Origin: Candidatus Micrarchaeota archaeon
Lineage (GTDB): Archaea > Micrarchaeota > Micrarchaeia > Micrarchaeales > CABMGC01
Assembly: GCA_023270055.1 (NCBI GenBank)
Contig: JAGDYB010000019.1
Location: 32,129-96,128 of the forward strand
Length of the DNA stretch: 64,000 nucleotides
Reading direction: 5' to 3'
This document shows, piece after piece, positions 19,801 through 64,000 of the stretch; position 1 is the first letter of the stretch; the number at the start of each line of letters is the position of its first letter. A model generated the notes under the pieces. It was not told the DNA's origin. It saw only the letters and a list, made by a program, of their open reading frames with translations, and made no database searches. A program made the translations under genes and the position numbers.

Positions 19801-19949
19801 TAGTGTATCCTCAAAATTTCACTGGTATGAACTATATCAACTCTACTGCGCCGGTAATGATATTCAAGCTGGATAACTATAGCGGTGGTGCCGCACCGGT
19901 AACGCCAAAGCCTCCGTGGATAAAGAATAACTACACAATGCCTGGCTAA
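16866..19949 (+). CDS. aglB: Oligosaccharyltransferase AglB/STT3 with N-terminal 3-TM plus coiled-coil extension
   Basis: Catalytic 'WWDYGDWI' motif, first-loop 'FEFDPYFD' acidic motif, many TM helices. 1027 aa. Residues about 1-205 are extra: three TM helices plus a charged heptad-like segment. Confidence 0.9.
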   Translation: MPLLTIFIAFLAIIVPGFFLALALLRKTMLNLFEITVIGFIFGLIFPPVLTWFESYFINSIHAFSFSAGLYNVNVVILTIIGIALCIQQGAIKIPGITRKDEVKEIIVEEKDYRSRINDLRQRIKLLNTDLTLVNKHEEEENALKRRQEAELASLQGLSEEEKEKIKSMHEEEVKKLVEEHEKEEMLLIKSSKNEKNSIPSSATWLILLFLMLLTFSTRMLSIGIAPKFFEFDPYFDMISTEYILTYGYQLLYDHAAWPTVATGTSHRIQPIIPYLEAYWYDLANSLDFHYTTLNTTLLSDVSSFYPPIAAALLVFVIFLFLYHEYGSFTALVGASLATFMPTLITTFVAGEQLLEPWGIFAMFFFYATYFLAVKHSKERRFAVLAGIAFASTFLGAHYYTVNAGVMAIYILLQGVYLILKKRETRDFYITNAIVIITFSIFYLIYSPYNATLTERIPSFLGVPSIIGFPLAAFLIIMIYEYVPILLNKFKITNLKINRSLYVEWLVLLVIIALLLVAFTSVGKPIKSYLNLSYKFTHPSTPLFMTVQEFEPSGINFDFGSAGFGIIAVQFGGFSILLWAVIIAFTVIEILLLLYRNSMSSILLLAAVWPLIIAAMAEVKYIPHFGVAYILALSIIFGELLIYAEKNKLSSNNKINLKNVVYAIGLFVVFAEALVLVPILSAVSNPNCAVLSNPNNPNAIGYDLYCNVVPSYWLSATAWMKSHVGPYAARILSWWDYGDWINWFGNSNAVIRGDNSVPSLDEAVAAQYVLSPQDGFGPKTLANFMNKNQTEYVVFDNALQQKWGALDFLACVYVNETSEQYAEQQASVLNASQPYVLGQSTCEVNHAPVYALVPLNTSIISNFCQSSNSSAVAIKTILIQGNHEPPLTVGTYCIPENGLNNPVVRLYNQTGKPTNMLIVQSSQFFYGYAKIPGMGVVADFMVLYTPNGPNYTITDAPSLFYNSTYYKAFFFGHLKGFTLVYPQNFTGMNYINSTAPVMIFKLDNYSGGAAPVTPKPPWIKNNYTMPG

Positions 19950-20022
19950 GTCCCAGTTTTTGGCACTTTGCAGCCATATTTTTATATATAAAAAGAGAAT
20001 ATATTTTACAGGGCGCAGATTG

Positions 20023-21165
20023 ATGAAATTGCTTATAGTGCAACCGTTCCTGAACATAAAAGGGGGATATGCAAGAGTGATACTAAAGATAGCGCAGTAT
20101 TACGATGCAACGATCTACACACTTGAATATGAAAAGGACAAGACGTTTGACGAATTCAAGTCCATAAACATAAAAACCATATCAAAACATGTGCCCTTTT
20201 CAGAAATGTTACCATACAGAGCGTCACAGGGTCTCAGGTACGGCTACGCCTTTTACAACATGAAGCTTGAAGACGACTTCGATCTCATAAATGCGCACAT
20301 ATCCCCAAGTGAATTTATTAGACATAAGAATTCGCCTGTTTTATGGTATTGCCATACTCCTCCCCGCGAGGTATACGACATGTACAGCATAAGGATGAAA
20401 GGCAGATCCTATAAGGACAAAATCGTCTACGCCTCCTTCGTCAGCGTATACAAGTTTCTTGCTAAAGGCATAGTAAACAATATAGAGGAAATTGCAACAA
20501 ACAGCAACAACACAAAGAGCAGGATTAAGAAATACTTCATGCGCGATTCAACGGTAATATCCCCCGGAGTGGACTATGAATTATTTTCTAATAAAAACGA
20601 CGAAAAATATTTCTTGTATCCTTCTAGGATAACCCCCACCAAGAGGCAGGAATATGCGATAAAAGCATTCCAGAGGTTTCTGAAGATGAGTAGCGACAAG
20701 CATTACAAACTCATACTTGCAGGGGAGCTTTCCAGCGATCCAGAGCATAGGCAATATTTCCAGAAGCTGAGCAAAATGGCTAGCAAAAACGTGGTGTTCA
20801 AGATTGATGTGACGGATAAGGAACTGATTGATCTATACGCGCATTCAACCGCGGTTCTTTTTACCTCTATAAATGAGGATTTTGGAATAGTCCCTCTTGA
20901 AGCAATGGCAAGTTTCAAACCTATAATCTCGGTTAACGAGGGCGGGCCAAAAGAGACTGTAGTAAACAACGAGACAGGTTTTCTTGTAAATTCGCCAGAG
21001 GAAATGGCGCAGAAGATGCTGCTTGTTTCAGAAAACAAGGCGCTTGCCGAGAAGCTCGGCAGGAACGGACGTCAGAGGGTAGTAAAAAACTATAGTTGGG
21101 ACGTATTTTTGTCCAAGTTCGACAGGCTAGCAAGAAAGACGATAAAGGAAAACAGCGAAAGATAG
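20023..21165 (+). CDS. GT4-family glycosyltransferase
   Basis: C-terminal 'EDFGIVPLEAMASFKPIISVNEGGPKETV' (E-x7-E). I prefer the ATG at 20023 ('MKLLIVQPFLN'). Confidence 0.85.
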   Translation: MKLLIVQPFLNIKGGYARVILKIAQYYDATIYTLEYEKDKTFDEFKSINIKTISKHVPFSEMLPYRASQGLRYGYAFYNMKLEDDFDLINAHISPSEFIRHKNSPVLWYCHTPPREVYDMYSIRMKGRSYKDKIVYASFVSVYKFLAKGIVNNIEEIATNSNNTKSRIKKYFMRDSTVISPGVDYELFSNKNDEKYFLYPSRITPTKRQEYAIKAFQRFLKMSSDKHYKLILAGELSSDPEHRQYFQKLSKMASKNVVFKIDVTDKELIDLYAHSTAVLFTSINEDFGIVPLEAMASFKPIISVNEGGPKETVVNNETGFLVNSPEEMAQKMLLVSENKALAEKLGRNGRQRVVKNYSWDVFLSKFDRLARKTIKENSER

Positions 21166-25872: not shown

Positions 25873-27195
25873 ATGATAAAAATAGATAGGAAGATAACCG
25901 ACATAATAAAGCGCGACAGGAAAGTCATAATGACAACAACACGCGAATCGTATCCTTTCGTACCAGACCACGGTGACGGCGATTTCATATATGATATTTC
26001 TGGAAACAAGTTTATCGATTTCTCCAGCTTCATAAGCGTATATAATTTCGGCGTGAACGCAAACAAAGAAGTGCGGGAGGCAATAAAAAAACAAGTCGAC
26101 AAGCTTATGCATCCAGCATTCACAGATTATTATGGCGAGTTGCCAGTCAAGTTCGCAGAGAAGTTAGTAAAAATGTTTCCTAGCGGTTTTGGGAAAGTGT
26201 TTTTCTCCAACTCTGGCACCGAAGCAAACGAAGCAGCGATGAAATTTGCCCGCATATTCACAAAAAGAACCTACATACTCGCATTTTACAATTCTTTTCA
26301 CGGAAGGACGCTTGGATCCCTTGGGATGACTGCGTCTAAGGTTGTGCAGAGGGAATATTTCGGCCCTTTCGCAAACATTGTGCATGCACCTTTCCCATAT
26401 CCATACAGATGCCCTTTTGACCACGAGCAGTTTGAATGTGGCATGGATTACATAAATTTCATAGAGAACTATATATTCAGGAAGGAAGTATCACCAGAGG
26501 AAATTGCAGCAGTATTTATAGAGCCAGTACAGGGCGAAGGGGGTTATATAGTCCCGCCCAAAAAGTTCATTACTGAACTGAGAAAAATAACGTCTGAACA
26601 CGGCATATTGCTTATCGATGACGAGGTACAGGCTGGCAACTTTCGCACTGGCAAGTTTCTTGCGCTGGACAATTTCGGCGTGTCAGCTGACATATACACG
26701 ATGGCAAAATCGGTAGGAGCTGGCATACCTATAGGTTTGACTGTATCCAGAAACTCGCTCGGGAGCATACCAGCAGGTGCCCACGCCAATACGTTTGGTG
26801 GCAACCTTGTTGCTGTTTCCGCAGCAAACGCATTGCTCGATTACGTGACAAGGAACAAAACGCGCATAGAGCGCGGGGTAAAGGCCAAGGGAGCGTATGC
26901 AATGAAAAGGCTAAACGAGATGAAGGACAAATACGAGATAATAGGCGATGTGAGGGGCATCGGGCTTATGATAGGCGTTGAAATTGTAAAGGACAAAAAA
27001 TCGAAAGCTCCAGGGATCAAGGAGCGCGAGAAGATACTCAATGACAGCTTTTACAACGGGTTGGTTCTGCTTCCCGCAGGCGAATCTTCAATAAGGATAA
27101 TACCGCCGCTTACCGTAGCCGATGAAAATCTGAGGAAAGGCCTTGACATATTCGAGAATGCGGTGAAAAAAGCCAACTCAGACAAAGCGGTTTAA
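25873..27195 (+). CDS. Class III PLP-dependent aminotransferase (acetylornithine/GABA aminotransferase family)
   Basis: 'FSNSGTEANEAAMKFAR', 'LLIDDEVQAGNFRTGKF', PLP-Lys region 'YTMAKSVGAGIPIG'. 440 aa. Confidence 0.85.
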   Translation: MIKIDRKITDIIKRDRKVIMTTTRESYPFVPDHGDGDFIYDISGNKFIDFSSFISVYNFGVNANKEVREAIKKQVDKLMHPAFTDYYGELPVKFAEKLVKMFPSGFGKVFFSNSGTEANEAAMKFARIFTKRTYILAFYNSFHGRTLGSLGMTASKVVQREYFGPFANIVHAPFPYPYRCPFDHEQFECGMDYINFIENYIFRKEVSPEEIAAVFIEPVQGEGGYIVPPKKFITELRKITSEHGILLIDDEVQAGNFRTGKFLALDNFGVSADIYTMAKSVGAGIPIGLTVSRNSLGSIPAGAHANTFGGNLVAVSAANALLDYVTRNKTRIERGVKAKGAYAMKRLNEMKDKYEIIGDVRGIGLMIGVEIVKDKKSKAPGIKEREKILNDSFYNGLVLLPAGESSIRIIPPLTVADENLRKGLDIFENAVKKANSDKAV

Positions 27196-30100
27196 GCTGA
27201 ACTGGCGCTTGTCAACGATTTTCGGCTCACTAAACACATTTTCTATCTCGTCTTTTATTAGCTTGAGCCTTTGCTTGATATACATGTCAATATCGTACTT
27301 GTTGGCAAGGTTCAGCGCAAGCGAAAGATATTTTTCTATGTTGCCTTTAGAGACGGTAAGCAGAAGCTTGCCCCCATCCTTTGGGCATACTCCGGAAAGC
27401 GGAACGCGCCTGTATTTTGCATTGCAAACGGAGCATCTGAAAGTTTGCTTCGAGAACGTGTGGAGGTTGCCGATTATGTCTGGTATGAAATGGCTCAAAA
27501 GAAGCTTTTTCGCCGCGTCTTTGCTGTCTGTTGCATATATCATGTCCATGAGTTTGAATTCTGTATCTACTTTTTCTTGCATGTTGTTAAGCAAAGAGTA
27601 CCTGCCTCTTTTCGGCGCTGATTTTAGCGCGTTTATAGACGCTTCGTACGTGAAATTCAGCCCCCTAAACCTTTCATCTCCTTTGTCCAACCGGCTTTTT
27701 ACTATTTCAACGTCAACTTCATTTGGCGATACATAATTTAATGTCTTATAATAAAAGTCCTTGCCAAGCGACTTCGTGACGTCCATCATGTGCACTTCGT
27801 CATCTACCTCTTCAGGAACAACGTTGAGCATCAGAATTATCGGAGCGTCCATGGTTCCGCCCGTGCTGTTGGGCAGGTACTCCTTTGAAAAGTTTATCAG
27901 CGCGTCAAGCAGCAGCATAGTTGTGTCTTCATCGCCATCGCAGTTTCTTCGCCTTGCCGCGATAGTATACGGATGCGCCAGTCCAACATTTGCATCAGTA
28001 AAGCCTATAATTCTTCCAAGCACGCCACAAGATGTATGCGGCGAGAGCGTTATAACGAGTTGGCCTACTAAGTCCTGCACCTTTTCAGCATTGTAAAACT
28101 TCGGCAGCCGGTATAGTTTCTCAAGCATTTCGTCGACGAAGTTTGCAACTTTTAGCAGGTATTCCGCGCCGTGCATGTTTAGGATGACATCTTGGTGCTT
28201 AAGCTCAACCAATTGTTCGCTGCTGGCTAGCTTGTTTCCCAAATAATCTTTATCATATCCAAGCTCATTGAGCTTTTCAATGCTCGTGCCTATCTCCGCA
28301 GGATAAAAGTGCGTCAGCGGTGCGTCTGTTGCGTCAAATCTTGCCGTGCCATCTTTGAATATATAGACGCCGTGAAGGCTGCGCAATATGCCTTTTTCAA
28401 TCGGCTCCACCTTCTTGCCCTTGTTGCTGAGCCCTTTCACACCTTTTATAATGCTTGGCAGCTTTCCTACCCCTATCTTTTTGCTAGCATCACTGATAAG
28501 TTTAACTATGTCTACTTCATGCTCGCTTACCTCGCTCGTCTCCCCTCCGCACCTATCGCATGTTTCTCCAGAGCTCACAGCCCCACACTTTATGCACTTT
28601 CTCACAACCTCCGTAGGCATCTGGCAATCATAGCAATACGAGGTTGGCATCAACCGCTTGCAGTTTTTACACATATAATTTGCAGTTTCTACCTTTATGG
28701 ACGAATGGTCGAATTTTCTTGACCCTATGTTATAAGCCTTTATTATATTTCTCTCTTTTCCCCCGTATTCGCCTATGGGAAACAGCACGTTTGGCGGAGG
28801 TTTCATAAGCCTCTCTTTTGCCTTTTCTGGCCTCCCAACTCTTGCTGCAATGAATGTAGACCTTTTCATCACTGGAAATGCCGAAACCTTATTCACTAGC
28901 TCGATTGTGTCTTTGCTGTCATTTTCATAAAGCTTGAGCCTGTCAACAACATGATCTGACACATCAAGTGTCTCATCTGCCGAAAGAAAACCCAGAGAGC
29001 CTAGAAGAGCCTTGGCATAATCCCCGCGCACGACAACTTTGCCGTCTTCAATTTCATGGGGCACTGCAAGTAGTTCAAGCGTTCTCTTAACTGCAGCATC
29101 AACTTTGATATGTTGCACTCTTTGCAGTTCTGTTTTGTCAATTGCTTTATTTTCTTTTATAATCGCATCAGCAAGGCTTTCTATATCTTTCTTTTCGACA
29201 GAACCAAATTCATATAAATATTTTGGATGTATAGGCACCCCATACTTGCTGGACAGCGCATACGCATCATCAAATGCAACATTTTTCTCGTCAATGCTTA
29301 TGTTGTCATCCTTCTCCTTGAGCTGCTCCTTCCAGAAATCTTCAACATAACTGCTTGGCAACAGCATAGTGTTTGCATTTCTGAAGTCGCCGTATGCTAT
29401 CAGTATGTCGCCGAGATAAATTATCTCTTCCACATCGTTCTTTATCTCCTCTGCAAGCGCAGCGTCATTTACCCTTAACGCTCTTCCATCCTTGAGTCTT
29501 ACAAAAGGCCCCTCAATACTGTCTACTGGTGTGGCGATGCATCCTTTTCTGGGAGTGTGCATTTTGAGCTGAGTGCCAACAGCTATAAAATTCATTGTTA
29601 GTATCATAGTTGCAGGGCTGAATCCCATTGCGGCGATTCCGCTGAACCTGCTTCTGCCATACCTAAGCCTGAAGCCGCCTGCATAGCCCGGATACGCAAG
29701 TATGGGCCTTCCTGCGACAAGCTCACTGAGAAATGCTGTTGATTCGTCTTCCGTTTCCGTTTTCTTCTCCATCTTGTCTATTCTTATTATGTTGTTGAGC
29801 CATTCCCAGTCCAATCCAACCTTTCTTACCTCTTTTATGATTTTCTTTGCTTTTTGGGCTATGCCTTCGCATAGCACCAGTGGCACGCCCCCTCTTACTC
29901 TATTTGTCAAGAACACCGTTTTTCCCTCAGCATCCTTTCTCTTTATATCTCTGTGAACGCTAACTTCGATATCCTCGCTTGCAACTCCGTCAACGCATAC
30001 TGGGCAGTTTCCTGCTATGAATCTCAGGTCTTCCTCTGGCGGCTTGTATTGCAACCTAGCGGCTCTTGCATCGTAGAGGTTTACCTCCTCAACATACCTA

Positions 30101-30627
30101 TCTATCTCGTCTTGTGTCGGCTTGTACGGCCCAATGTTAAAAATCCTTCTTGCATAGTCAGCCAAAGCCACGGAAAGCGCTGCCGCAGTGCCTCCTGCAC
30201 CTCTTATCGGACCAGCATACATCACCGCTATATAATCGGTATTGTCCGGATTCTTGTACATTCTAACCTCTTGCAGCCCTTCTGTCGGTGCAACAAGTAT
30301 GCCTTCCGTCAATATGGCAAGTCCAACTTTTGTTGCCAGCTCTATCCTCTTTATCATTTCGTAATGTGCAAACGCGTCGTTTGTGCATATTTCCTTTGTA
30401 ACTTCGAAGGCGAGCTCGCTCCTTGTTTGCCCTTTCATCTTGTCGTTTATCGTTTTGGCAAGGCCTGCAATACCTATTATACCTTCCACTCTTGAACCTA
30501 TGTCTGGCGCGGCTTTTATTTCGACAAATGGCTTTGGATCAATGCCCTCTTTTTTTGCTAATGCAGCAAGCATATTCGCATTGTCAAAGTTTTTTTTCAA
30601 AATCTCGAAATACTCCTTGTTGTCCAA
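27178..30627 (-). CDS. polC: DNA polymerase II (PolD) large subunit DP2
   Basis: 1149 aa with Cys clusters 'CKNCKRLMPTSYCYDCQ...CIKCG...CDRCG' and 'CSVCNAKYRRVPLSGVCPKDGGKL'. Directly downstream of DP1. No intein-sized insertion. Confidence 0.95.
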   Translation of the reverse strand: MDNKEYFEILKKNFDNANMLAALAKKEGIDPKPFVEIKAAPDIGSRVEGIIGIAGLAKTINDKMKGQTRSELAFEVTKEICTNDAFAHYEMIKRIELATKVGLAILTEGILVAPTEGLQEVRMYKNPDNTDYIAVMYAGPIRGAGGTAAALSVALADYARRIFNIGPYKPTQDEIDRYVEEVNLYDARAARLQYKPPEEDLRFIAGNCPVCVDGVASEDIEVSVHRDIKRKDAEGKTVFLTNRVRGGVPLVLCEGIAQKAKKIIKEVRKVGLDWEWLNNIIRIDKMEKKTETEDESTAFLSELVAGRPILAYPGYAGGFRLRYGRSRFSGIAAMGFSPATMILTMNFIAVGTQLKMHTPRKGCIATPVDSIEGPFVRLKDGRALRVNDAALAEEIKNDVEEIIYLGDILIAYGDFRNANTMLLPSSYVEDFWKEQLKEKDDNISIDEKNVAFDDAYALSSKYGVPIHPKYLYEFGSVEKKDIESLADAIIKENKAIDKTELQRVQHIKVDAAVKRTLELLAVPHEIEDGKVVVRGDYAKALLGSLGFLSADETLDVSDHVVDRLKLYENDSKDTIELVNKVSAFPVMKRSTFIAARVGRPEKAKERLMKPPPNVLFPIGEYGGKERNIIKAYNIGSRKFDHSSIKVETANYMCKNCKRLMPTSYCYDCQMPTEVVRKCIKCGAVSSGETCDRCGGETSEVSEHEVDIVKLISDASKKIGVGKLPSIIKGVKGLSNKGKKVEPIEKGILRSLHGVYIFKDGTARFDATDAPLTHFYPAEIGTSIEKLNELGYDKDYLGNKLASSEQLVELKHQDVILNMHGAEYLLKVANFVDEMLEKLYRLPKFYNAEKVQDLVGQLVITLSPHTSCGVLGRIIGFTDANVGLAHPYTIAARRRNCDGDEDTTMLLLDALINFSKEYLPNSTGGTMDAPIILMLNVVPEEVDDEVHMMDVTKSLGKDFYYKTLNYVSPNEVDVEIVKSRLDKGDERFRGLNFTYEASINALKSAPKRGRYSLLNNMQEKVDTEFKLMDMIYATDSKDAAKKLLLSHFIPDIIGNLHTFSKQTFRCSVCNAKYRRVPLSGVCPKDGGKLLLTVSKGNIEKYLSLALNLANKYDIDMYIKQRLKLIKDEIENVFSEPKIVDKRQFSLNRFV

Positions 30628-30631
30628 TTTC

Positions 30632-32146
30632 TCACCAGAGCTCGCTGTTAAAATCTATCTCCGAATAATTCATGCTTTTAATTTCATATACTGGCAATAT
30701 CCCTGGGGTAGGTATATGTCCTTGCCTTACCTGGAATGCCGTTCTTGCCTGCCAAGTGCCGCTGTTTATAAGCAGTGTGCCATGGTATTCCGCGACACCA
30801 TTTTTGTGTATGTGCCCCATGTGCAGTATGTCAGGTACTTGATCAATGACCAGCGGGTCGTTCTTGGAAGGTACAACTATGTTACCTCCATATATAGGTG
30901 ACAGATGTCTTCTTTTTAGCAGTTCCTTCATTGCCTCCTCTGGTTTGGAATAGCTGCAGTTTGGTATAGACTGTATTACTGAATCGAGGGACGTTCCATG
31001 ATATGTGAGCAGATTCACACCATTTATTTTTATATAAGACGGGTTTGATACAAAATGTACATTTCCCTTGGCAAATCCTCCAATCAAGTCGTTCGGAAAC
31101 GGTGGTTGTGGTTCAGACCGCTGAACTGCGTCATGATTGCCAGGCAGCACAAAAACTTCTATGTAATCCGGTATTGCATCAATGAAATCAAGGAGTATTG
31201 AATACTGCTTGTACATATCATCGACGCTCAGATCTCTTTCCTGTTCAGGATAAACACCTATTCCATCTGCGACATCCCCATCCATTATTACATATTTTAC
31301 CTTTCCCGCCAAGTCGTTCCTGTAGTTTAAACCCCCATTAAGCCAAGCTATAGCTTTTTTAAATTGTTTGTCAAGAAAAAGCTTGCTTCCAATATGTATG
31401 TCAGAAAAAAACGCGATTGCAACGTCATCCTCCCCCTTTCTTCTTGACCTTATCGGCACGTCTGGCCATAATATACTGTTTGCTATAACGAATGGGCCTG
31501 ATATTTTACCCTTCACTATTACTATATCATCGTTAATGAGCCTTCTTCCGCTTTCGAATATTTCATTTGTTCCCCCTGTTTTTAGGAACAGTACTTTTGC
31601 GTATCCTGTCTCGTCTTCAAGTGTGACAAGCAAGTGGCCATTCTTAGTTATATGCTTATCATAAACAATGCCACAAACACTTATCTCTCGCCCATCCCCG
31701 TAATTCTTTATATTGCTTATGTTGTTTATCATGCTTCCTATGGTTCCATTTCTTCCATTTGTAATTATTTCCTTTATCTTTTTGTATCTGTCATCGAAAT
31801 ATTCGGAGAAATCCGCGACGGCTCCTCCAGTTTTTTCCAGCTCCAAATTCCTCACGCTGAAGTCCGGCTTTACATCTTTAGCCTCCGCCTTAAAGCCATT
31901 GCTCCTTATAACCTCAACTGTTATCGGAGTTTTGTCATTACCCTCGCTTATTATCTTTTTGAGCTCGTCATTGGTCAATATTGCAATCCCAGCGCCTTCA
32001 AAATGCTTTATGATTTTCACCGCGAGCGCTTCAATATCCATGCCAGCAATATCATTTTCGCCGATTTCAGCGCTAACCACGACCTTGCCACTAAGCAGTT
32101 GTGTAAGCTTTACTACAAGTGAGCTGTCAATGGCGTCGCTCCCCAT
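30632..32146 (-). CDS. polB: DNA polymerase II (PolD) small subunit DP1 (Mre11-like phosphoesterase exonuclease)
   Basis: Calcineurin-like motifs 'FFSDIHIGS', 'MDGDVADG', 'LPGNHDA', 'MGHIHKNG'. 504 aa. Confidence 0.95.
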   Translation of the reverse strand: MGSDAIDSSLVVKLTQLLSGKVVVSAEIGENDIAGMDIEALAVKIIKHFEGAGIAILTNDELKKIISEGNDKTPITVEVIRSNGFKAEAKDVKPDFSVRNLELEKTGGAVADFSEYFDDRYKKIKEIITNGRNGTIGSMINNISNIKNYGDGREISVCGIVYDKHITKNGHLLVTLEDETGYAKVLFLKTGGTNEIFESGRRLINDDIVIVKGKISGPFVIANSILWPDVPIRSRRKGEDDVAIAFFSDIHIGSKLFLDKQFKKAIAWLNGGLNYRNDLAGKVKYVIMDGDVADGIGVYPEQERDLSVDDMYKQYSILLDFIDAIPDYIEVFVLPGNHDAVQRSEPQPPFPNDLIGGFAKGNVHFVSNPSYIKINGVNLLTYHGTSLDSVIQSIPNCSYSKPEEAMKELLKRRHLSPIYGGNIVVPSKNDPLVIDQVPDILHMGHIHKNGVAEYHGTLLINSGTWQARTAFQVRQGHIPTPGILPVYEIKSMNYSEIDFNSELW

Positions 32147-33257: not shown

Positions 33258-33347
33258 CGGGCCCGGCGGGAATCTCATTTTTCAAATTTGAACCCGCGAC
33301 CGTCAGCTTAGAAGGCTGCTGCTCTGTCCAAGCTGAGCTACGGGCCC
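33258..33347 (-). tRNA. tRNA-Arg (UCU) with a 15-nt intron in the T-loop (about position 59/60)
   Basis: Hand fold: GGGCCCG TA GCTC AGCTTGGACA GAGC A GCAGC CTTCTAA GCTGA CGGTC GCGGG TTCAAA[TTTGAAAAATGAGAT]T CCCGC CGGGCCC G. No encoded CCA. The 5' end lies 7 nt after the tatD stop. Confidence 0.8.
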
Positions 33348-44406: not shown

Positions 44407-44414
44407 TGCAAATG

Positions 44415-44489
44415 TGGGCCTGAGGGGATTTGAACCCCTGACTTACTGGTTAAAAGCCAGCCACTCTGGCCAAGCTGAGTTACAGGCCC
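44415..44489 (-). tRNA. tRNA-Lys (UUU)
   Basis: Hand fold: GGGCCTG TA ACTC AGCTTGGCCA GAGT G GCTGG CTTTTAA CCAGT AAGTC AGGGG TTCAAAT CCCCT CAGGCCC A. No intron. Confidence 0.9.
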
Positions 44490-44532
44490 ATAAGCTTCAT
44501 TTTCCTAAACTGGTCAAACAAAAACTAAAAGA

Positions 44533-44763
44533 TTATCTTTTTTGGTTGGCAAAGTTTGCTTCTTCATTTGACAGCTCCAACATTCTCGACTTCTGATAAC
44601 CGCTTACTCCTTCGCTCGCATCTCTGTAGAGCTCGGAAGCCTGTCTGTGCAGCTCCTTCGCCTTTTCGGGATCAGTAACTTCAGATCTTTTTGCAACTTC
44701 TCTAAGAGTGTTCGCAGCACTTACATCCACCACCCACTTCGGCACATCATTAAGTTTTTCCAT
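44533..44763 (-). CDS. Hypothetical small helical protein (76 aa)
   Basis: ORF with charged, helical composition. TATA-like 'AATATAATTTATAC' upstream. No motif recognised. Confidence 0.35.
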   Translation of the reverse strand: MEKLNDVPKWVVDVSAANTLREVAKRSEVTDPEKAKELHRQASELYRDASEGVSGYQKSRMLELSNEEANFANQKR

Positions 44764-44897
44764 TATATCCCCCGCTATGCGTATAAATTATATTACATTA
44801 TCCTTATATTTATTGCTTGCCATTCAGCAGGCTTTGCCGGCAAAGCAAAATCTTATAAACAAAGAAATTCAAGGAAAGATTAGCACAACAAAAAAAG

Positions 44898-45251
44898 TTA
44901 ATTGCGTTTTGCTTTTTTTATCTGTTCCGCTACCTTTTCCTTGTCCTCCACTTCTATTATTAAATAGTCATAAGGCTCATTTTTAAATTCTATTGTAACG
45001 CATTTTGTTGGATCTTTCATCGCAAAGAATGCCGTTTTACCGCCCCTCATTACATATCTACCCTCTTTAATAATACCAGGCAAGCCTGTTCCTCCAACTC
45101 GCAATCCCTCTACCCATTTCTTTTGGTCTGTAGATACAGAGACCACATTATTTAGGTCGAATTCTAACTTCCTTTTTATAGCCGCCAGTTCTTCAAGGCC
45201 CTGAAATTCCACTTTTATCTTTCCATCTTTTATCTCTACTTTGTGAGCCAT
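44898..45251 (-). CDS. Hypothetical protein (117 aa), possibly PH-like beta-sandwich
   Basis: Beta-rich pattern 'VEIKDGKIKVEFQG...GRYVMRGGKTAFFAMKDPTKCVTIEF' and a C-terminal helix. The fold guess is weak. Confidence 0.4.
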   Translation of the reverse strand: MAHKVEIKDGKIKVEFQGLEELAAIKRKLEFDLNNVVSVSTDQKKWVEGLRVGGTGLPGIIKEGRYVMRGGKTAFFAMKDPTKCVTIEFKNEPYDYLIIEVEDKEKVAEQIKKAKRN

Positions 45252-45361
45252 TTCATCATCATATTGATGAAGCTTTTTTAATATATAAATTTTTGCTGCG
45301 GGTTTTATTTTACGTTTGCTTTGAGGCGTTTTTTTAACAAAACAAGTATCGTATAAGAAAG

Positions 45362-45433
45362 CGCCCGAAGCAGGGATCGGACCTGCGACCTACTGGTTAA
45401 CAGCCAGTCGCTCTACCACTGAGCTATTCGGGC
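45362..45433 (-). tRNA. tRNA-Asn (GUU)
   Basis: Hand fold: GCCCGAA TA GCTC AGTGGT AGAGC G ACTGG CTGTTAA CCAGT AGGTC GCAGG TCCGATC CCTGC TTCGGGC G. The T-loop reads UCCGAUC, with C at the usually invariant U55 position. Confidence 0.85.
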
Positions 45434-50638: not shown

Positions 50639-50741
50639 GCGGGGGTGGCAGAGTTTGGCCAAATGCGCAGGACTGAGGTGCAGTAAGCTCAGAACTCCTG
50701 TAGCTTAAGTGCTTGCGTGAGTTCAAATCTCACCCCCCGCA
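50639..50741 (+). tRNA. tRNA-Leu (GAG) with a 16-nt canonical (37/38) intron
   Basis: Hand fold: GCGGGGG TG GCA GAGTTTGGCCAAA TGC G CAGGA CTGAGG[TGCAGTAAGCTCAGAA]C TCCTG TAGCTTAAGTGCTTGC GTGAG TTCAAAT CTCAC CCCCCGC A. Starts 1 nt after the rpoD stop codon. Confidence 0.85.
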
Positions 50742-57238: not shown

Positions 57239-57742
57239 ATGGCGAGTGTCAAAAAATCAAAAGAGCCTGAAAAAGAGAAGGAAAAGCAGCAAGTGAAGAA
57301 AGAGAAGATATCATATGAGGAAGAGGCTGCAGCTGCAGCGGAAAAGTTTAAACCGAAAGCAATAAGGTGGGGTGTCGCACACATATACGCGTCTAAAAAC
57401 GATACTATCATAACGCTTACTGATCTTTCCGGCGCCGAAACGCTTGCTGTAGGCAGCGGTGGCATGGTTGTCGATGCAGACCATGAAGAAGGAACGCCTT
57501 ATGCGGCGATGCAGGCAGCGTACAAGGTGGCAGCCAAGGCGCATGAGAAGAACATAACGAACATTAACATAAAAATAAGGGCACCCGGAGGGCACGGATC
57601 AAAGACCCCTGGACCTGGCGCTCAGGCAGTTGTCAGGGCGCTCGCGCGCAGTGGCTTCAAGATAGGAAGCATAGAAGATGTCACTCCTATACCTACAGAT
57701 ACAACCAGAAGGCCTGGAGGAAGAAGAGGAAGAAGGGTCTAA
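57239..57742 (+). CDS. rps11: Ribosomal protein S11 (uS11) with Lys/Glu-rich N-terminal extension
   Basis: '[19 protein letters not shown]', '[27 protein letters not shown]', C-terminal 'GGRRGRRV'. Confidence 0.9.
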
Positions 57743-60738
57743 GCTTTTACCTTCCCGTTGCCGTTCCCATTCTTTTTGTCTTTAACTTCAGCCACAGCCA
57801 CGCTTGTATTGGCTTCATCCAAGCGCATTGATCTCTGCAGGCGCTTGAACTGCTCCCACCTTTCATCCCTTTCCAGCAGCTTCAATGCTATGAGATCGTC
57901 CTGGAGTATAGGCTCAACGGTCGTCTTCACAATTCTGCCGGTGCCGCTGTCTATCTTGATATGCAAGTTCAAGTAGCCGTTGAGATTTTTTGCCATGCGC
58001 TCTGATATTGTCTCTAAATAAGCCTGATTGTCTGGATCCTGACCTGAAGGTATCTTTACCTCCCACCTCTCGCCCTGCGCGCTGATCTCAAACCGGTGGT
58101 AATGCCCGCTTATGACCAAATCAGCATCGCGCTCCTGCTTGTCCAGGAGGTCTTCTCCCTTTGATATGCTCCTGGCAAGCTTGTGCGTGAAAAATATCGG
58201 GGTAAGCTTGCCGTTTATAGAAATATACAACTCGCCAGCGCCGTACTCGCCCCCGGACACAATTTTTATGTGGTCCTTATACTCTTCGCTGACCTTGTCT
58301 TCGATGGCAGCAGCAATTCTTATTGCTTCGTCAAGTTTAAGCCCCTGGAACGTGTTGTTATAGTGGTTTCCTGCGACCACCACCACATACTTACCTTTGT
58401 TGACTAGCTCTGCAGAAACATCAATGAGCCCGCGCATGAGTTTGTCGCGCATCTGGTTATCTATATTGTATTCAGGCGTGCTGTAAAGGTATCTTTCAAG
58501 GTATTTTTCCTGTTCTGCAAGCACCTCACCTTCGCTCAAACCACTTTTTTTGAGCATTTCCGTGTATTCGTCGAACGTCTGCTTCGTGTAACGTATGTCC
58601 GGATCATATTTGAAGCTCTTGTGGTCCCCTTCTATCACATCGCCGCCTATGACAAATATATCAGGGTTTTCATTTCTTATGCGAGTTAGCATTGCGATTA
58701 TCACTTTATAGTTTGGTTTTCCGCCGATATGCAGATCCGACACCATAGACAGCTTTACATTGGCATATCCATTTAGTTCCACACTGCTATATGGTATCAG
58801 CGCAGATATCTTTTCAGGCGTCACTTGTGCTAATTCCCTTTCCCTTAGCTCAGAGGGCCGCCTGCTGCGTATTATCGCAGCTTCCAAGTTCGGCTTCTCC
58901 CCAACCCCTTCAGCGGTGCCTTCATCAGTTTTTTTGAACCTTGAAATATCAATATTTTTACCCTCCTCTATATCATCTGCAATCCTCTCCTTCGCCAGCT
59001 CCTTGTAATTAATGTTGTCTAAGCTCACTATTCCCTTCCCGTTTATTGTCATCATGCTTGCGCTGTAGTCCATTCGCCTCTGGAATCCTTCGGTGTAAGT
59101 ATCTTTTATTCCCTTGTTCCAGGCATTGTACGCAAGCTGCGGATCGATGAACGGGCCCTGGTTCCAGTACCACACCCTTGATTGCGTTTTCTCAAAGAGC
59201 ACCGGCTTAAACATGGTCAAAGCATTATGGCCTGATATTACTATATTCGGCTCGAAGTTTATGGCTTCATAAAGCCGGTATATAACCTTTTGTGCTTCGT
59301 CAACGCTGCTTTTTTTGAACATGTAAGACGTGTTTGTGAGGGAATGGGCAATGAGCACATTATACCCCTTGTTGCTATTTCCCTCCACGCTCTTCGTGAA
59401 CTTTGCAAGCGGATCTACCTCCTTCTTTGCTATTGTAAAACTCCTGTATTTTGCGTTTCCATCCCCTCCGTCGCTTGCTTCTATCTTCGACACCCGCACC
59501 GGAGTTATATTCTCGTCTAGAATCACTATCTCGCGCTTCCTTCCAAAAGCATCCTTGATATGGCCTTTGTATATCTCAACAGCAAGGTTCTCTATGCCCT
59601 TCGCCATGTCTGCCTCTATATACACCTGACCTGTGAATCTGTATGCCTGCCTGAATCTTCTCTCCCTTGCCATGCGCTCCTCGCCGCCAATCATCTCATC
59701 CAGGCGCTTGTGCAAGGCGCGAAGCCCGTTGGCAAGTTTTCTCCTTTCCTGATCTGATGCTGCATTCTTCAATTTTCTTTCCGTGTATTTGATCTCGTTA
59801 GTTATGTCAAGCTCCTCAAGTCTTTTCTCCAAAGCCTTAAGCCGCTTGGTGAGAAGCTCCTTGTCTCCGCTGTCATGGTTTTTGCCGGTGCCATTTATCC
59901 TATGCAGCGCCTTAGTTGTCTCCTTTATCGCCCTCTTTATAAATTTCTCGTTGCTGGTATAATCAAGCGAATTTATGAAGACGTTTTCCAGCATTACATA
60001 CTGCTTGTTCAGATCGTCAATCTCGCTTTTTGTCATGTAAGTTTTCCTTTCTATATTCTCAAGTTTTTTGTTTATTGTCGCAGCCTTGTTTCCGTTGCCG
60101 TTTGACTCAAGCCCATTTGTCTTCAGTTCCTCGAGCTTTTTCTCGTATTCCGCTTTTGACTTGTCCATCCCCCATATTATTGTCTTCTTGGCTTTTATCT
60201 CGGATGTAACCCTTGTTATCCTTTCGAGCAGCTTGTCCTGCTGCGCCTTGAAATCGTACACAAGTATGTCAGAAAGTTCTTCTATGTTCTGCCTGTCTTC
60301 CTCATTTAGAACGTAGATCACTGCCGTGCTGTTTGGAAGGCGATTTAGCAGTCTTTCGATGCTCGGTTTCACAACCGCTGCAGCATCGTTCAGTTCGTTT
60401 ACTCCATTCTGAAGCGCATTGAGCTTATCCTTTTTCTTCCTTATCTTTGGAGGTATGTATGGCAGTGCGCCCCCGTTCACTATGAAAAGATCCGGCATTT
60501 CTTCGGCGCGTAAGCCTTTAAGCAAGTGTGCAAGGCCTATCATGTTGTTCTTGCCTTCATAAACCTTGCCTCCTCCTATATCCGCAACCTGCAATATCCT
60601 GAGCCCTTCAAGCTCGCTCGGCTTCCGGATAAGGCCCAGTTCAATTATCTTATTCGAGAAACCGTCAAAAAAAGCATCTTCATTTACATTAACCTGGTCG
60701 TCATGCAAATTTTCCCCCATTTCACTCCCCAATTGCAT
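57739..60738 (-). CDS. Large uncharacterised protein: degenerate N-terminal plus intact C-terminal calcineurin-like phosphoesterase domains, with a long coiled-coil insertion
   Basis: The C-terminal domain has all five motifs: 'SDLHIGG', 'GGDVIEGDH', 'AGNHYNN', 'FTHK', 'SGHYHRFE'. The N-terminal region has the same order but degenerate: 'VADIGGG', 'VNGGALP', 'LNEEDR', 'IAHSL', 'SGHNAL'. Residues about 150-400 are K/E/L-rich and heptad-like. A TATA-like 'TTTTAAATA' at 60752-60761 favours a start at Met7 (60720). Confidence 0.6.
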
Positions 60739-60845
60739 ATATCGGCGAAACTATTTAAAACTTCCACAATTCCACTATTATTGATATATTTTTTTGTTTA
60801 TGGCTGTAATAAAATTGGCAAAGCAATGCAAAGCAGCGCATAATT

Positions 60846-61418
60846 TCATCGCGCGACGATTAGGAATAGCGCAATTAGCGCAACAGGAACGAGCAAGTTG
60901 TCATCGATTTTTATATCAAGGCTCTCCACAAACGTTGCCAGCAGCGAGAATACGATTGCAACAACACCAACCGCAAAATAGCCAAAGGCAAGCATGCTTG
61001 TAAAGTAGAATGCTGAGCCGACTATTGTCTTCCTTCTGCTATACGGCAGCAACGGCCCTTTTAGCGTAATACCAGATATTGTTGCAAGCGAATCGCTTAT
61101 CATAGTTGCAAACAGGAGCATGAGCAGGTAAGGTTCTGAATGGACAAAAAGCAGGTAGAGCAGCACTCCTATGCCGAGCCATATGGCCCCGCTGCCAAAC
61201 CCCCTGTTTTTCCTCTCAAGCCTGTACAGAAACCGCAGTGGTCCCGCACTTTTCGAGTTTCGTGCTATCGCAACAGTCATGAAGCCCAACAGCACAAGCA
61301 CCGCTATTGCCAGGCTGCCGAGCTCAAGCCCGAGCCAAGCTAAAACCGTAATTACCACTATGCCGGCAAGTATCTGAAAAATATCCCTTTCTATTTCAAT
61401 CCTTTCATGCTCGAGCAT
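60846..61418 (-). CDS. Polyprenol/dolichol kinase-like membrane protein (CTP-transferase-1 superfamily)
   Basis: 190 aa, about 6 TM helices. 'ISDSLATISGITLKGPLLPYSRRKTIVGSAFYF' resembles the D-x-x-A...K-[ST]-x-x-G-[ST] motif of dolichol/phytol kinases. Confidence 0.5.
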   Translation of the reverse strand: MLEHERIEIERDIFQILAGIVVITVLAWLGLELGSLAIAVLVLLGFMTVAIARNSKSAGPLRFLYRLERKNRGFGSGAIWLGIGVLLYLLFVHSEPYLLMLLFATMISDSLATISGITLKGPLLPYSRRKTIVGSAFYFTSMLAFGYFAVGVVAIVFSLLATFVESLDIKIDDNLLVPVALIALFLIVAR

Positions 61419-61470: not shown

Positions 61471-63324
61471 CTAAATATAATATATAATCCAAGCCGATAT
61501 GATCAAACCCGCGGTCACAATTATAGGCGTGCCGATTTTCACCATCCTTAATACGTATTTGCTCGCTTTCGTAAGTTTCTCCTCAGCATTGCCGCCCCAC
61601 ACCCTAAAGTTCCTTATATTTATAATGCCGAAATGCGAGTCAACCTCTTCAATGTTTCCAAGGGCGGTCTCTATCATGCCGTCCACAACCGGAAGCAAAG
61701 TTTCCGCTCTTGTACTCCTGCCCAAGACATTGCTTGCAGGCAAAGACAGGCCGTTCACCCCGTGCGTATCTGTTGTATAAACCTCTGCATCAATCCCAAA
61801 TTTTTCCCTTACATGTACTATTATTTTTTCTCTGAGGCTGGGCAGCATGTTGTTCGCATCAAAATATATCATTGCGAACTTTTTATTTTTGGAGAAGTCA
61901 AAAACGCATACGCTCGCAAAGCCTTTACCAATATCTTTTCTCGCTCCAAGAACGCTGTGCAGGCGTACTTGTGCAACGCCGCATCTTACGGTGCCACTTG
62001 TATAACCATTACAGCTCTCCTCTATAGCCTTTTCATACTTTTCCACATACTTGCTGCCTGGATATATACCTTTTAGTTCATCGCTGCTCGACGTTTCAAA
62101 TCTTGAATTGTGCGCATCAATCAGCATAACGCCTTTAGAAAAGCGCGAAGCCAAGGTTTCGAGTTTTTTGCCAACCTCTTCATCAATATCTTCGGTTACT
62201 GTAGGCGCTTTTGTAAGGCTTATCATTGAGACGCCATTTATATTAACGTTTATGGCCTTGCACGGCTTCTCATAACCTTCGCCAAGAAAACCGTTTGAAT
62301 GCTTGAAGGCATTTGCGTCAAGTAAGTCTATGTATTTGTCTACCTCCTTTATCATGGCATTGACCTCCGCACTGCTTATCGGGTTGCTTTTCGCAGTTAC
62401 TGTTCCATGCAGAGTGAATGGCACGGCATTGTACTTGCCGTATATATGCTGGCCCATTCTTTCAGTGAAAACGCTTCCGCCTACGCCAGCGAAAGGTCCA
62501 TAGTGTATGGCAGGCTCGACAAAAATCGCTTTATATCCCTTCTTGCGCCTGAGAGCGAGTATCTTCACGGGTATATCCTTTGCTTCTCCCATGTTCGAAC
62601 TGAAAGTCTCCTCGAAAGTACCTGTGTTGTATAACCACTGGTTCACCATTATCGAAAATGCCTTTATGCCGCTCGTGTTGAGCGCCTTTTTCATGGGCTT
62701 GTCTATGATATACATGAACAGAACCGCAATCACTAGCGAGCCTATCATGCCGCCAAGCAGCTTTATTATTGCTATGTCAAGTGGCATGTTCAAGCTCAAT
62801 ACATACTTGCCAAGCGGCACGTAGAAAAACACATTTAACAAGGGCTGCAGGGCTGACACGACCCACGCTCTCTTCTTGTTTGCAGTAAAAACCATCTTGT
62901 TTATTATTATCCAAAAAGTGTACACGCTGGCGTTTCCAAGCAGCATAATTAGGTATGCTGGCAGCGCATTCTTTGAAATATAGAATAGCAACGCATTCAA
63001 AACTATGAATATCGAGTAGATAAGGCTGCTTATTATGGTTGCAAAAAACAGGTGCTTGAGCATTGCCCTCCTTGTCACGCCCTTCATCAGCATTATAGTG
63101 AGCAGTGCTGGCAACGTTATCACAAGCAATCCGGCGCTCGCCCCGCTAATCAGAAGAGAAAAAAGCGTTTGCGGTGAGACCAGCGCAGCATGCGTGAACA
63201 GCACTGCTATCGCGCCTACCACAGCGCCCAAAACTAAAAGCAAGACAAGCTGCTCCCACGCTTCGGGCACCTTTTTTGTGAAGTACCTGCTATAACCTAA
63301 AAGGTCTCTTCTTGAGTCAGGCAT
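61471..63324 (-). CDS. DUF2070-like archaeal membrane protein (N-terminal multi-TM plus large soluble domain plus C-terminal TM)
   Basis: 617 aa: about 7 N-terminal TM helices, a roughly 370-aa hydrophilic domain ('HYGPFAGVGGS', 'IDAHNS', 'TTDTHGVNG'), and a terminal TM. The family assignment is from memory of the architecture only. Confidence 0.5.
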   Translation of the reverse strand: MPDSRRDLLGYSRYFTKKVPEAWEQLVLLLVLGAVVGAIAVLFTHAALVSPQTLFSLLISGASAGLLVITLPALLTIMLMKGVTRRAMLKHLFFATIISSLIYSIFIVLNALLFYISKNALPAYLIMLLGNASVYTFWIIINKMVFTANKKRAWVVSALQPLLNVFFYVPLGKYVLSLNMPLDIAIIKLLGGMIGSLVIAVLFMYIIDKPMKKALNTSGIKAFSIMVNQWLYNTGTFEETFSSNMGEAKDIPVKILALRRKKGYKAIFVEPAIHYGPFAGVGGSVFTERMGQHIYGKYNAVPFTLHGTVTAKSNPISSAEVNAMIKEVDKYIDLLDANAFKHSNGFLGEGYEKPCKAINVNINGVSMISLTKAPTVTEDIDEEVGKKLETLASRFSKGVMLIDAHNSRFETSSSDELKGIYPGSKYVEKYEKAIEESCNGYTSGTVRCGVAQVRLHSVLGARKDIGKGFASVCVFDFSKNKKFAMIYFDANNMLPSLREKIIVHVREKFGIDAEVYTTDTHGVNGLSLPASNVLGRSTRAETLLPVVDGMIETALGNIEEVDSHFGIINIRNFRVWGGNAEEKLTKASKYVLRMVKIGTPIIVTAGLIISAWIIYYI

Positions 63325-63335
63325 AAAAACACATG

Positions 63336-64000
63336 CTAGTTGCCAAACCTTCTTTCTCTTGTGCTATAATCCATCAAGGCTTTTTCAAGGTCCATCTTGC
63401 TGAAGTCAGGCCAGAGTTTCCTCGAGAAATAGAGCTCAGAGTATGCGGACTGCAAAGGCATGAATCCCGAAAGCCTCATTTCCCCGGATGTCCTTATTAC
63501 AAGATCTATGTTTGGTATATCCTTTGAAATAAGGTAGTTGCTGAAGTTCGAGAGGCTTAGCCTTATCACCCTGCCTTTGTCCAAAACTGTTTTCGCATAT
63601 TCCTTTGCCGCATACAGTATGTCTGCGCCTCCTCCGTACCCAATGAGCATATTTATGACATTTTTCTTGTAGCCCTCGGTTTTTGCTTCGGCATTTTCGA
63701 GCGCTTTTTCAAGGTCGCCAGGAAGCAGTTCCCTTCTCCCAATTATTCTGAGCCTGGTTTCGTTCTGGCGCAATCTTTCTATTATGTTTTCATCCAGCGC
63801 CGTTTTTTTGTATATCTTGAACAGTATGCTGAGCTCGTTGCTTTTTCTTTTCAGATTTTCCGTGGACAAGGCCCAAACCGTAAGATTTTTTATTCCATAT
63901 CCCAGGCACCATTCGCTGAAATCTATGAACTTGTTTACGCCCTGCTGGTAACCCTCAAAAAAAGATATATTGTTTCTTTTGGACCATCTCCTGTTTCCAT
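63336..64000 (-). CDS. uppS: cis-Prenyltransferase (undecaprenyl/dehydrodolichyl diphosphate synthase), 5'-truncated by the window edge
   Basis: My translation of the reading frame upstream of the track ORF gives '..GNRRWSKRNNISFFEGYQQGVNKFIDFSEWCLGYGIKNLTVWALSTENLKR', followed by 'IRTSGEMRLSGF' and 'YSELYFSRKLWPDF'. The N-terminus lies beyond position 64000. Confidence 0.85.
   Translation of the reverse strand, partial: GNRRWSKRNNISFFEGYQQGVNKFIDFSEWCLGYGIKNLTVWALSTENLKRKSNELSILFKIYKKTALDENIIERLRQNETRLRIIGRRELLPGDLEKALENAEAKTEGYKKNVINMLIGYGGGADILYAAKEYAKTVLDKGRVIRLSLSNFSNYLISKDIPNIDLVIRTSGEMRLSGFMPLQSAYSELYFSRKLWPDFSKMDLEKALMDYSTRERRFGN

Follow-up and report, generated by a model that had tools for sequence, protein, structure and literature searches.

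A tandem of degenerate and intact metallophosphoesterase domains with a helical insert in a protein family of DPANN archaea

Introduction

Proteins of the metallophosphoesterase (MPE) superfamily (PF00149/PF12850) carry an ordered set of motifs (D-x-H, G-D, G-N-H, H and G-H-x-H), and many of them, including Mre11, Rv0805, GpdQ and MJ0936, act as homodimers. The B-subunits of DNA polymerases provide a precedent for dead MPE domains that are kept as structural or binding modules, and the YaeI/LpxG-like proteins are single-domain members of about 270-400 amino acids (aa). We describe here a gene at 57739..60738 on the minus strand of a 64,000-nucleotide (nt) stretch of DNA from Candidatus Micrarchaeota archaeon (GCA_023270055.1, contig JAGDYB010000019.1, positions 32,129-96,128 of the forward strand; the whole stretch is called the window). 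Its 999-aa product shares the motif set of the superfamily in a C-terminal domain and the fold and motif order in an N-terminal domain. It differs from the superfamily in carrying both domains in tandem in one chain, in that the N-terminal copy is dead, and in the helical module of about 250 aa that lies within the dead copy.

A first-pass annotation of the window had likened this gene to a single-chain Mre11/Rad50-like layout without an ATPase. The analysis presented below upheld the tandem and lent no support to that functional analogy. The best explanation, which we consider probable, is a stand-alone cytoplasmic protein of DPANN archaea in which duplication produced a single-chain MPE pseudo-dimer. 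The superfamily is well known, and the architecture appears to be new within it.

Results

An intact metallophosphoesterase site in the C-terminal domain

Conservation was counted in an alignment of 44 sequences, whose members are 19-30% identical to the window protein, and a full AlphaFold2 (AF2) model was built on the same alignment (mean predicted local distance difference test score [pLDDT] 80.5, predicted template modelling score 0.81). All coordinates within the gene refer to the minus strand. The C-terminal domain (aa 658-950; 57889..58767), for which the pLDDT was mostly >85, matched the Pfam model PF00149 (Metallophos) over aa 666-882 with 45.1 bits against a cutoff of 21.5 (E 2e-11) and PF12850 (Metallophos_2) weakly; 17 of the 44 members matched PF00149 individually. 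The complete calcineurin-like motif set quoted in the first-pass annotation was found, with SDLHIGG at aa 667, GGDVIEGDH at 698, AGNHYNN at 789, FTHK at 850 and SGHYHRFE at 877, but it occupies aa 667-884 and not about 690-930 as had been stated.

The predicted metal ligands were strongly conserved. D668, H792, H852 and H881 were present in 44/44 sequences, H670 in 43/44, D700 in 42/44 and N791 in 36/44 (Q in six), and position 879 was H in 28 sequences and D in 15. The Pfam score and the invariance or near-invariance of the catalytic residues in 44 homologues show that the motifs did not arise by chance, and the retention of these ligands over very deep divergence indicates that catalysis is under selection. 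The enzyme class, metallophosphoesterase, is clear, and as judged from its sequence the C-terminal domain bears the signature of an active binuclear-metal phosphoesterase. Two features set this copy apart from the superfamily. Motif III reads G-N-H-Y-N and not G-N-H-[DE], and a helical insert of ~70 aa, which includes the invariant Q762, separates motifs II and III.

Foldseek comparison of the full model with the Protein Data Bank (PDB), in which the aligned half of the query was not distinguished, returned MPE-fold structures for all 50 matches listed. The best match was DP1 of DNA polymerase D (PolD; E 1e-5), followed by Rv0805, GAP50, Lmo2642, Mre11, Vps29, GpdQ and SMPDL3, and this ranking singled out no subfamily.

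A degenerate copy of the same domain in the N-terminal half

The N-terminal half consists of two segments that flank the helical module. The first (aa 45-145; 60304..60606) has a beta1-alpha-beta2-alpha-beta3 arrangement and is the best-conserved segment of the family. The second (aa 398-576; 59011..59547) contains a small beta subdomain (aa 404-436) and the last two of five degenerate motifs, VADIGGG (aa 51), VNGGALP (87), LNEEDR (144), IAHSL (463) and SGHNAL (502). The first-pass annotation had proposed from these peptides, all of which were found, that the N-terminal half repeats the motif order of the C-terminal half as an inactivated internal duplicate. Indeed, when a profile of the N-terminal core (aa 40-165 + 398-600) was aligned by hhalign with the C-terminal profile, a match of E 2.6e-5 over 186 columns was obtained (probability 75%), with all five of the proposed motif pairs in register (e.g. 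SGHNAL/SGHYHR); in both halves, motifs II and III also enclose an N-[IL]-D element. Control alignments with the helical region gave E about 0.3.

Independent comparisons agreed with this result. The N-core profile aligned with YaeI-like MPEs over motifs I-II (hhalign E 0.006), and Pfam Metallophos matched the start of the domain at aa 46-89 weakly (E 0.03, or 0.0025 when the helices were removed). An AF2 model of the spliced N-core (pLDDT 81.6) retrieved only MPE structures with Foldseek, as expected for an MPE fold interrupted by helices. A YydB model was best (2e-5), Mre11 reached 1e-4, and further matches were SapH, SMPDL3B, DP1 and the inactivated MPE domains of the B-subunits of DNA polymerases delta, epsilon and zeta; the template modelling scores of these matches were modest (0.3-0.46). 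The in-register profile alignment, the weak Pfam match and the exclusive retrieval of MPE folds by the N-core model together make an ancient internal MPE duplication well supported, and equally the view that the N-terminal half is a catalytically dead copy, a predicted pseudo-enzyme.

In the 44-member alignment the catalytic metal ligands of the N-terminal domain were mostly lost. Pseudo-motif I is [ED]-[IL]-G-G-G, with no histidine, and pseudo-motif II is G-G-x-L-P-x-x-P, with G-[GE] at the ligand position. Pseudo-motif III is Y-V-x-G-x-x-D148-x-x-N151, in which D148 was conserved in 42/44 and N151 in 43/44 members. Pseudo-motifs IV and V were variable, H504 of motif V being kept in 25/44. 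Conservation along the protein peaked at aa 45-151, with a mean pairwise identity of 32.7%; the corresponding values were 24.8% in the catalytic domain and 19% in the helical part. By position, the conserved residues of the pseudo-site correspond to the loops from which genuine MPEs build their active site, and the pseudo-pocket may have kept a role in binding or as an interface.

A helical insertion within the degenerate copy

The K/E/L-rich insertion (aa 146-397; 59548..60303) was modelled by AF2 as eight helices. The two longest, aa 167-207 and 215-260 (41 and 46 aa), are separated by a short N/G-rich loop (aa 208-214) and are read in the model as an antiparallel hairpin; model confidence was low at aa 313-359. 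Hydrophobic residues recurred with a 3.5-residue period throughout the family in helices 167-207, 215-260, 264-283 and 290-309 (normalised power 5.5-10.5, against ≤2.6 at other periods). Within the insert the family profile matched designed antiparallel coiled coils, tropomyosin and keratins in the PDB weakly (E 0.003-0.1). The composition was 12.5% K, 12.3% E and 10% L, with 0.1% Cys, and the segment ends in the strongly conserved sequence I-K-D-A-F-G-R (aa 394-400). These results bear out the location and pattern of a heptad-like stretch that had been described between degenerate motifs III and IV, while its length, about 250 residues, lies at the bottom of the proposed range of 250-330. The 14-residue and 18-residue peptides quoted for it were located at aa 298 and 332, and the 16-residue peptide (aa 170-185) had been misquoted by one letter, since the sequence is LLERITRV and not LEERITRV.

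Insert length ranged from 148 to 269 aa (median 229) in the 44 members, none of which had a CxxC zinc hook within it. By helix geometry, the modelled arm would be a coiled-coil-like hairpin or bundle of 6-7 nm and not of the length of Rad50/SbcC, which reaches tens of nm. In two distant relatives the module is shrunken, to ~30 residues in P0060 and ~110-130 aa in P0066 as delimited by segment hidden Markov models (HMMs). The ancestral core was accordingly a tandem of two MPE-like domains, with the helical module as a lineage-specific elaboration. P0060 (580 aa) and P0066 (714 aa) keep the tandem of dead and live MPE and thus amount to natural "deletion" variants of the insert.

The remaining parts of the protein are an N-terminal extension (aa 1-42; 60613..60738) that is non-conserved, being absent or different in homologues, and has a pLDDT <50; a mostly helical inter-domain linker (aa 577-657; 58768..59010) with a nearly invariant P628-S629-E630; and a C-terminal helix with a low-complexity K/N/G tail (aa 951-999 and stop; 57739..57888) that overlaps the ribosomal protein S11 gene. 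No signal peptide or membrane anchor was seen when the sequence of the N-terminus was read by eye.

Family membership and distribution

A word-indexed search retrieved only an identical 999-aa protein in Joint Genome Institute (JGI) data (P0001) and one 891-aa Micrarchaeales protein (31% identity). When a profile of those two sequences was run exhaustively with HMMER against 1.84 billion cluster representatives, it retrieved 103 proteins at E≤1e-3, of which 71 reached E≤1e-10 and 53 reached E≤1e-30. The majority were 850-1000 aa long and matched end to end. Separate HMMs for five segments showed that the order N1, helical insert, N2, linker and C-terminal MPE also holds in distant members. Most entries had neither a name nor a taxon label; the names given by the sources were "hypothetical protein" and, once, "metallophosphoesterase, partial". 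The labelled members belong to Micrarchaeia, Micrarchaeales and Micrarchaeaceae, and distant relatives of 700-850 aa occur in Woesearchaeota and unclassified archaeal metagenome-assembled genomes. Among the few members with a taxon label, the MPE tandem was thus seen only in DPANN lineages, which are very small, symbiotic archaea.

The first-pass annotation had recognised no named family, and this was borne out. The N-terminal 650 residues had no Pfam or NCBIfam model, no library model had such an architecture, and no match was found to known defence or phage families. In the libraries and literature searched the combination is undescribed: a tandem of dead and live MPE, a helical module in the dead copy, restriction to DPANN and stronger conservation of the dead copy.

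Comparison with characterised subfamilies

With Mre11/SbcD the protein shares the MPE fold, a motif I of the D-x-H-[LIV]-G type and Foldseek matches for both halves. In profile searches, MRE11A, Rad32 and Thermotoga maritima Mre11 reached E 0.03-0.5 against the family profile, and the Mre11/SbcD models TIGR00619, NF041029 and NF041753 gave no NCBIfam match at E≤10. The capping domain, Pfam Mre11_DNA_bind, had no match in the window protein or in the 44 members; the stretch between motif V and the tail is only about 65 residues long and in the AF2 model consists mainly of a beta hairpin (aa 921-945). The first-pass annotation had reported no Walker A or ABC signature, and none was detected, as the pattern [AG]xxxxGK[ST] was absent from the 999-aa protein and SMC_N, AAA_23 and ABC gave no Pfam match. 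The helical arm is at least 10-fold shorter than the coiled coils of Rad50, has no zinc hook and sits in an MPE domain and not in an ABC head. No Rad50/SbcC-type gene adjoined the MPE gene in the window or in annotated homologous loci, where the sole SMC_N and AAA_23 matches, both weak, were to a 305-aa ABC-transporter ATPase (L003). Membership in Mre11/SbcD or Rad50/SMC was therefore rejected for want of a profile match, capping-domain model, ATPase motif, hook or partner.

DP1, the top Foldseek match of the full model, and the eukaryotic DNA polymerase B-subunits share a motif II of the G-D-x-[IV]-[DE]-G type with the window protein. A local hhalign match near motif V was obtained to the DP1 encoded in the window itself (E 1.6e-4). 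Unlike DP1, the 999-aa protein had no OB fold and no DNA_pol_E_B match in Pfam, and its domain order and helical insert are unrelated. Identity as DP1 was ruled out by these negative matches and by the presence in the same window of a genuine DP1 (30632-32146; DNA_pol_E_B + OB + Metallophos) next to DP2 (27178-30627), at 27178-32146 together.

The nearest out-of-family sequences in the exhaustive search were YaeI/LpxG-like proteins, which matched over motifs I-II only, about 60 residues; those matched have 100-160 extra N-terminal residues. Over these two motifs hhalign to a YaeI-like set gave E 8.9e-13. The best NCBIfam match was the LpxG model, which scored 18.4 bits against a cutoff of 350 and covered aa 639-702 only.

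Genomic context

A contiguous homologous open reading frame (ORF) was present at 27 related loci, comprising the window, GTDB genomes and contigs with exact members or metagenome relatives, in which the flanking ORFs were clustered without prior assumptions. No conserved same-strand partner was found across the 27 loci, in keeping with the monocistronic appearance noted earlier. The flanks were mostly housekeeping genes, among them ribosomal protein and RNA polymerase clusters (window, L007, L012), aminoacyl-tRNA synthetases, ABC transporters and PmbA/TldD. Nucleotide-metabolism genes were scattered near some homologues, with Ham1, thymidylate kinases and NUDIX in L006, a dCMP deaminase in L010, a deoxyribosyltransferase and an HD protein in L011, and NUDIX in L013 and L014.

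In 12/27 loci a convergent pair of genes, encoding a DUF87 ATPase and an endonuclease IV, lay immediately downstream (L002, 3842-6613, minus strand; L007, 11429-13966, minus strand; also L015, L016 and L018-L023). These loci come from the P0002 and P0114/P0049 clades, two lineages at opposite sides of the family tree; between them the MPE proteins are only 22% identical, against 46-49% for the neighbour proteins. The best NCBIfam similarities of the ATPase were to CedD, CedB and HerA, all far below the cutoffs, and the endonuclease IV matched nfo (TIGR00587) above its cutoff. This HerA/CedD-like protein and the 305-aa ABC-transporter ATPase were the only recurrent ATPase neighbours in the 27 loci. 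The pair was absent from the window by tblastn and from the other sampled lineages. It gives a hint of a DNA-related role, although it may be no more than inherited synteny, and it does not amount to evidence of an operon.

A Ced-like DNA translocase in DPANN archaea may be of interest in itself. Separately, in two loci of distant non-Micrarchaeota relatives (L010, 5666-6610; L011, 6320-7216; both minus strand), a Metallophos_3-type gene of ~300 aa lies 1-2 kb upstream of the MPE gene on the opposite strand; this extra MPE gene could be a chance neighbour or a second partner.

The gene and its surroundings in the window

The gene content of the window is archaeal, with PolD DP1 and DP2, a thermosome subunit, SecY, phosphoenolpyruvate carboxykinase and an S13-S4-S11 ribosomal protein block. 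The 999-aa ORF was present as previously called, and the 4-nt overlap of its 3′ end with the convergent S11 gene (57239..57742, plus strand) was real by its coordinates. An A/T-rich gap of 107 nt separates it from the upstream same-strand gene. A TATA-box-like element, TTTTAAATA (60752..60760, minus strand), was read directly from the sequence of this gap, and it suggests that the MPE gene may have its own promoter. The element lies only ~18 nt from the first ATG, which is too close by the usual spacing of archaeal promoters, whereas the second ATG (Met7; 60720-60718) is preceded by a Shine-Dalgarno-like GGAGTGA, and an independent call of the same sequence (P0014) begins at MGENL, that is, at Met7. 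For these reasons the predicted start is probably Met7, which would give a product of 993 aa.

Three upstream genes on the minus strand encode a multi-pass membrane protein of 190 aa, for which Pfam gave no match (60846-61418), a DUF2070 membrane protein (61471-63324) and an undecaprenyl-diphosphate-synthase-like prenyltransferase (63336-63869). In L019-L021, too, a homologue of the 190-aa protein is found beside the MPE gene. Elsewhere in the window, an uncharacterised 1027-aa ORF (16866-19949, plus strand) had no Pfam match at E≤0.001. Its N-terminus has several hydrophobic, transmembrane-like segments, after which comes a helical stretch rich in K/E, and the ORF is directly upstream of a GT4 glycosyltransferase gene (19960-21165). 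Rfam reported a 103-nt tRNA match (50639-50741, plus strand) that probably contains an intron and a weak 59-nt tRNA match (33289-33347, minus strand; 31 bits). Both were missed by ARAGORN, which reported only tRNA-Lys and tRNA-Asn at 44414-45433, and they may be intron-bearing or atypical archaeal tRNAs.

Discussion

In the reading that we prefer, the protein would be a phosphodiesterase whose single active site, in the live C-terminal copy, holds a binuclear metal centre (Mn/Fe/Co-type). The dead domain would stand in for the second subunit of dimeric MPEs (Mre11, Rv0805 and GpdQ, for example) and would bind the substrate or a partner, and the helical arm would mediate self-association or docking. 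As many MPEs are homodimeric, the tandem is probably a dimer of this kind locked into a single polypeptide, in which the dead half would be binding or regulatory and the live half catalytic. The dead MPE domains of polymerase B-subunits, which act in interactions, offer a parallel. Nothing in the evidence points to an unexpected mechanism.

The substrate class can be proposed only tentatively. A nucleic acid, attacked at its ends or in its phosphodiester backbone during repair or salvage, is a possibility that we place first among the substrates, on the grounds of the structural neighbours, the flavour of the motifs and the HerA-like/nfo gene pair. DNA enzymes were prominent among the Foldseek neighbours of both halves, and two of the motifs, D-x-H-[IV]-G (I) and G-D-x-I-E-G (II), resemble those of DP1 and Mre11.

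Several points weigh against the pseudo-dimer reading and the preference for nucleic acid. The family is known from sequence and predicted models, and the pseudo-dimer geometry is one that we infer. Similarity to characterised MPE subfamilies is generic, with LpxG at 18 bits of the 350 demanded and the best PDB sequence at E 0.03. The nearest out-of-family proteins, being YaeI/LpxG-like, point to small-molecule or lipid substrates as much as to DNA, and the Foldseek E-values do not separate nucleases from cyclic nucleotide phosphodiesterases, Vps29 or SMPDL3. The ATPase and endonuclease IV genes are convergent with the MPE gene and hence not co-transcribed with it, and they are missing from the window and most sampled lineages.

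The alternative that survives best, although we hold it to be rather unlikely, is a phosphodiesterase of small molecules or nucleotides (cyclic or 2′,3′-cyclic nucleotides, diadenosine tetraphosphate [Ap4A], or nucleotide-sugar or lipid pyrophosphates), similar to YaeI, LpxG, Rv0805 or SapH. The dead domain and the arm would then form a regulatory or localisation module, perhaps for nucleotide salvage in an auxotrophic symbiont. The YaeI/LpxG-like sequences nearest to the family and the weak LpxG model match fit this proposal, as does the presence of Rv0805, GpdQ, SapH and SMPDL3 among the structural matches. Yet these similarities are generic to the superfamily and fall under every family cutoff, and the transmembrane segments of YaeI and LpxG are missing. 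The nucleotide-metabolism genes near homologues (L006, L010, L011, L013, L014) would also suit it, but the same gene never occurred twice and their presence could reflect dense, small genomes. For an enzyme that simply hydrolyses nucleotides, moreover, a length of 1000 residues and a conserved pseudo-domain would be out of the ordinary.

A single-chain, ATP-independent analogue of Mre11-Rad50/SbcCD, the layout suggested by the first-pass annotation, is improbable. The tandem MPE would correspond to the Mre11 dimer, which a tandem repeat could indeed mimic, and the insert to the Rad50 arm, so that DNA ends would be tethered and processed; such a protein might substitute for a missing Mre11-Rad50 complex in reduced DPANN genomes. 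Mre11/SbcD structures were among the Foldseek matches of both halves, and in two deep clades the convergent neighbours, a HerA-family ATPase and endonuclease IV, are conserved. Archaeal HerA is a known Mre11 partner, according to the reference list of PMC7779479. No Rad50 or Mre11 gene was found among 13 window proteins scanned with Pfam, most window ORFs being unscanned. On the other side stand the missing Mre11/SbcD, Mre11_DNA_bind, SMC_N, AAA_23 and Rad50/SMC profile matches and Walker A motif, helices of at most 46 aa with no CxxC in the 44 members, a conserved ATPase operon partner that was not found, and nearest relatives that are YaeI/LpxG-like. The insert sits in a dead MPE and not in an ATPase head, and the module is not integral to the core function, as P0060 has ~30 residues in its place and P0066 a short one. 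The HerA-like gene, too, is convergent and is missing in most loci, including the window. The idea of a fused Mre11/Rad50 has no specific support.

A more elaborate form of this proposal is just as doubtful. In it, the protein would be an ATP-independent, single-chain device by which DPANN archaea process or tether DNA ends. Live and dead MPE would together mimic the Mre11 dimer, and self-association of the hairpin would bridge DNA. The partners would be the conserved neighbouring HerA/CedD-like translocase and endonuclease IV, and the protein would either replace Mre11-Rad50 or digest imported host DNA for nucleotide salvage.

Less probable still is a mainly structural or scaffold protein, cytoskeletal or at the contact of symbiont and host, with the MPE as a protein phosphatase or a vestige. 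The coiled-coil-like module, the restriction to DPANN and the fast-evolving helices (19% identity) would be in line with such a role, and the inactive MPE scaffolds GAP50, Vps29 and polymerase B-subunits occurred among the structural matches. Against it, the C-terminal catalytic ligands are invariant over very deep divergence, and neither a signal peptide nor a membrane anchor was apparent. The PPP-type phosphatase motifs GDxHG, GDxVDRG and GNHE were not matched. An artefact, either a mis-assembled or frame-fused ORF of two unrelated genes or a misread DP1, might be suspected from the unusual length and the DP1 structures at the top of the Foldseek matches, but it is refuted by >40 full-length homologues from independent assemblies with the same domain order.

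The single-chain pseudo-dimer remains our preferred explanation. In reduced DPANN genomes, proteins of unassigned function that are large, conserved and single-copy are where essential biology peculiar to a lineage might be sought, be it genome maintenance, the scavenging of nucleotides or dependence on a host. This family offers a clear and testable tandem of enzyme and pseudo-enzyme in which conservation is higher in the dead copy than in the live one. If the substrate is DNA and the link to the HerA/CedD-like protein and endonuclease IV is functional, it would represent a new form of end processing that works without a Rad50-type ATPase. Otherwise, it would still be an unnamed family that deserves a domain definition and a clean target for biochemistry.

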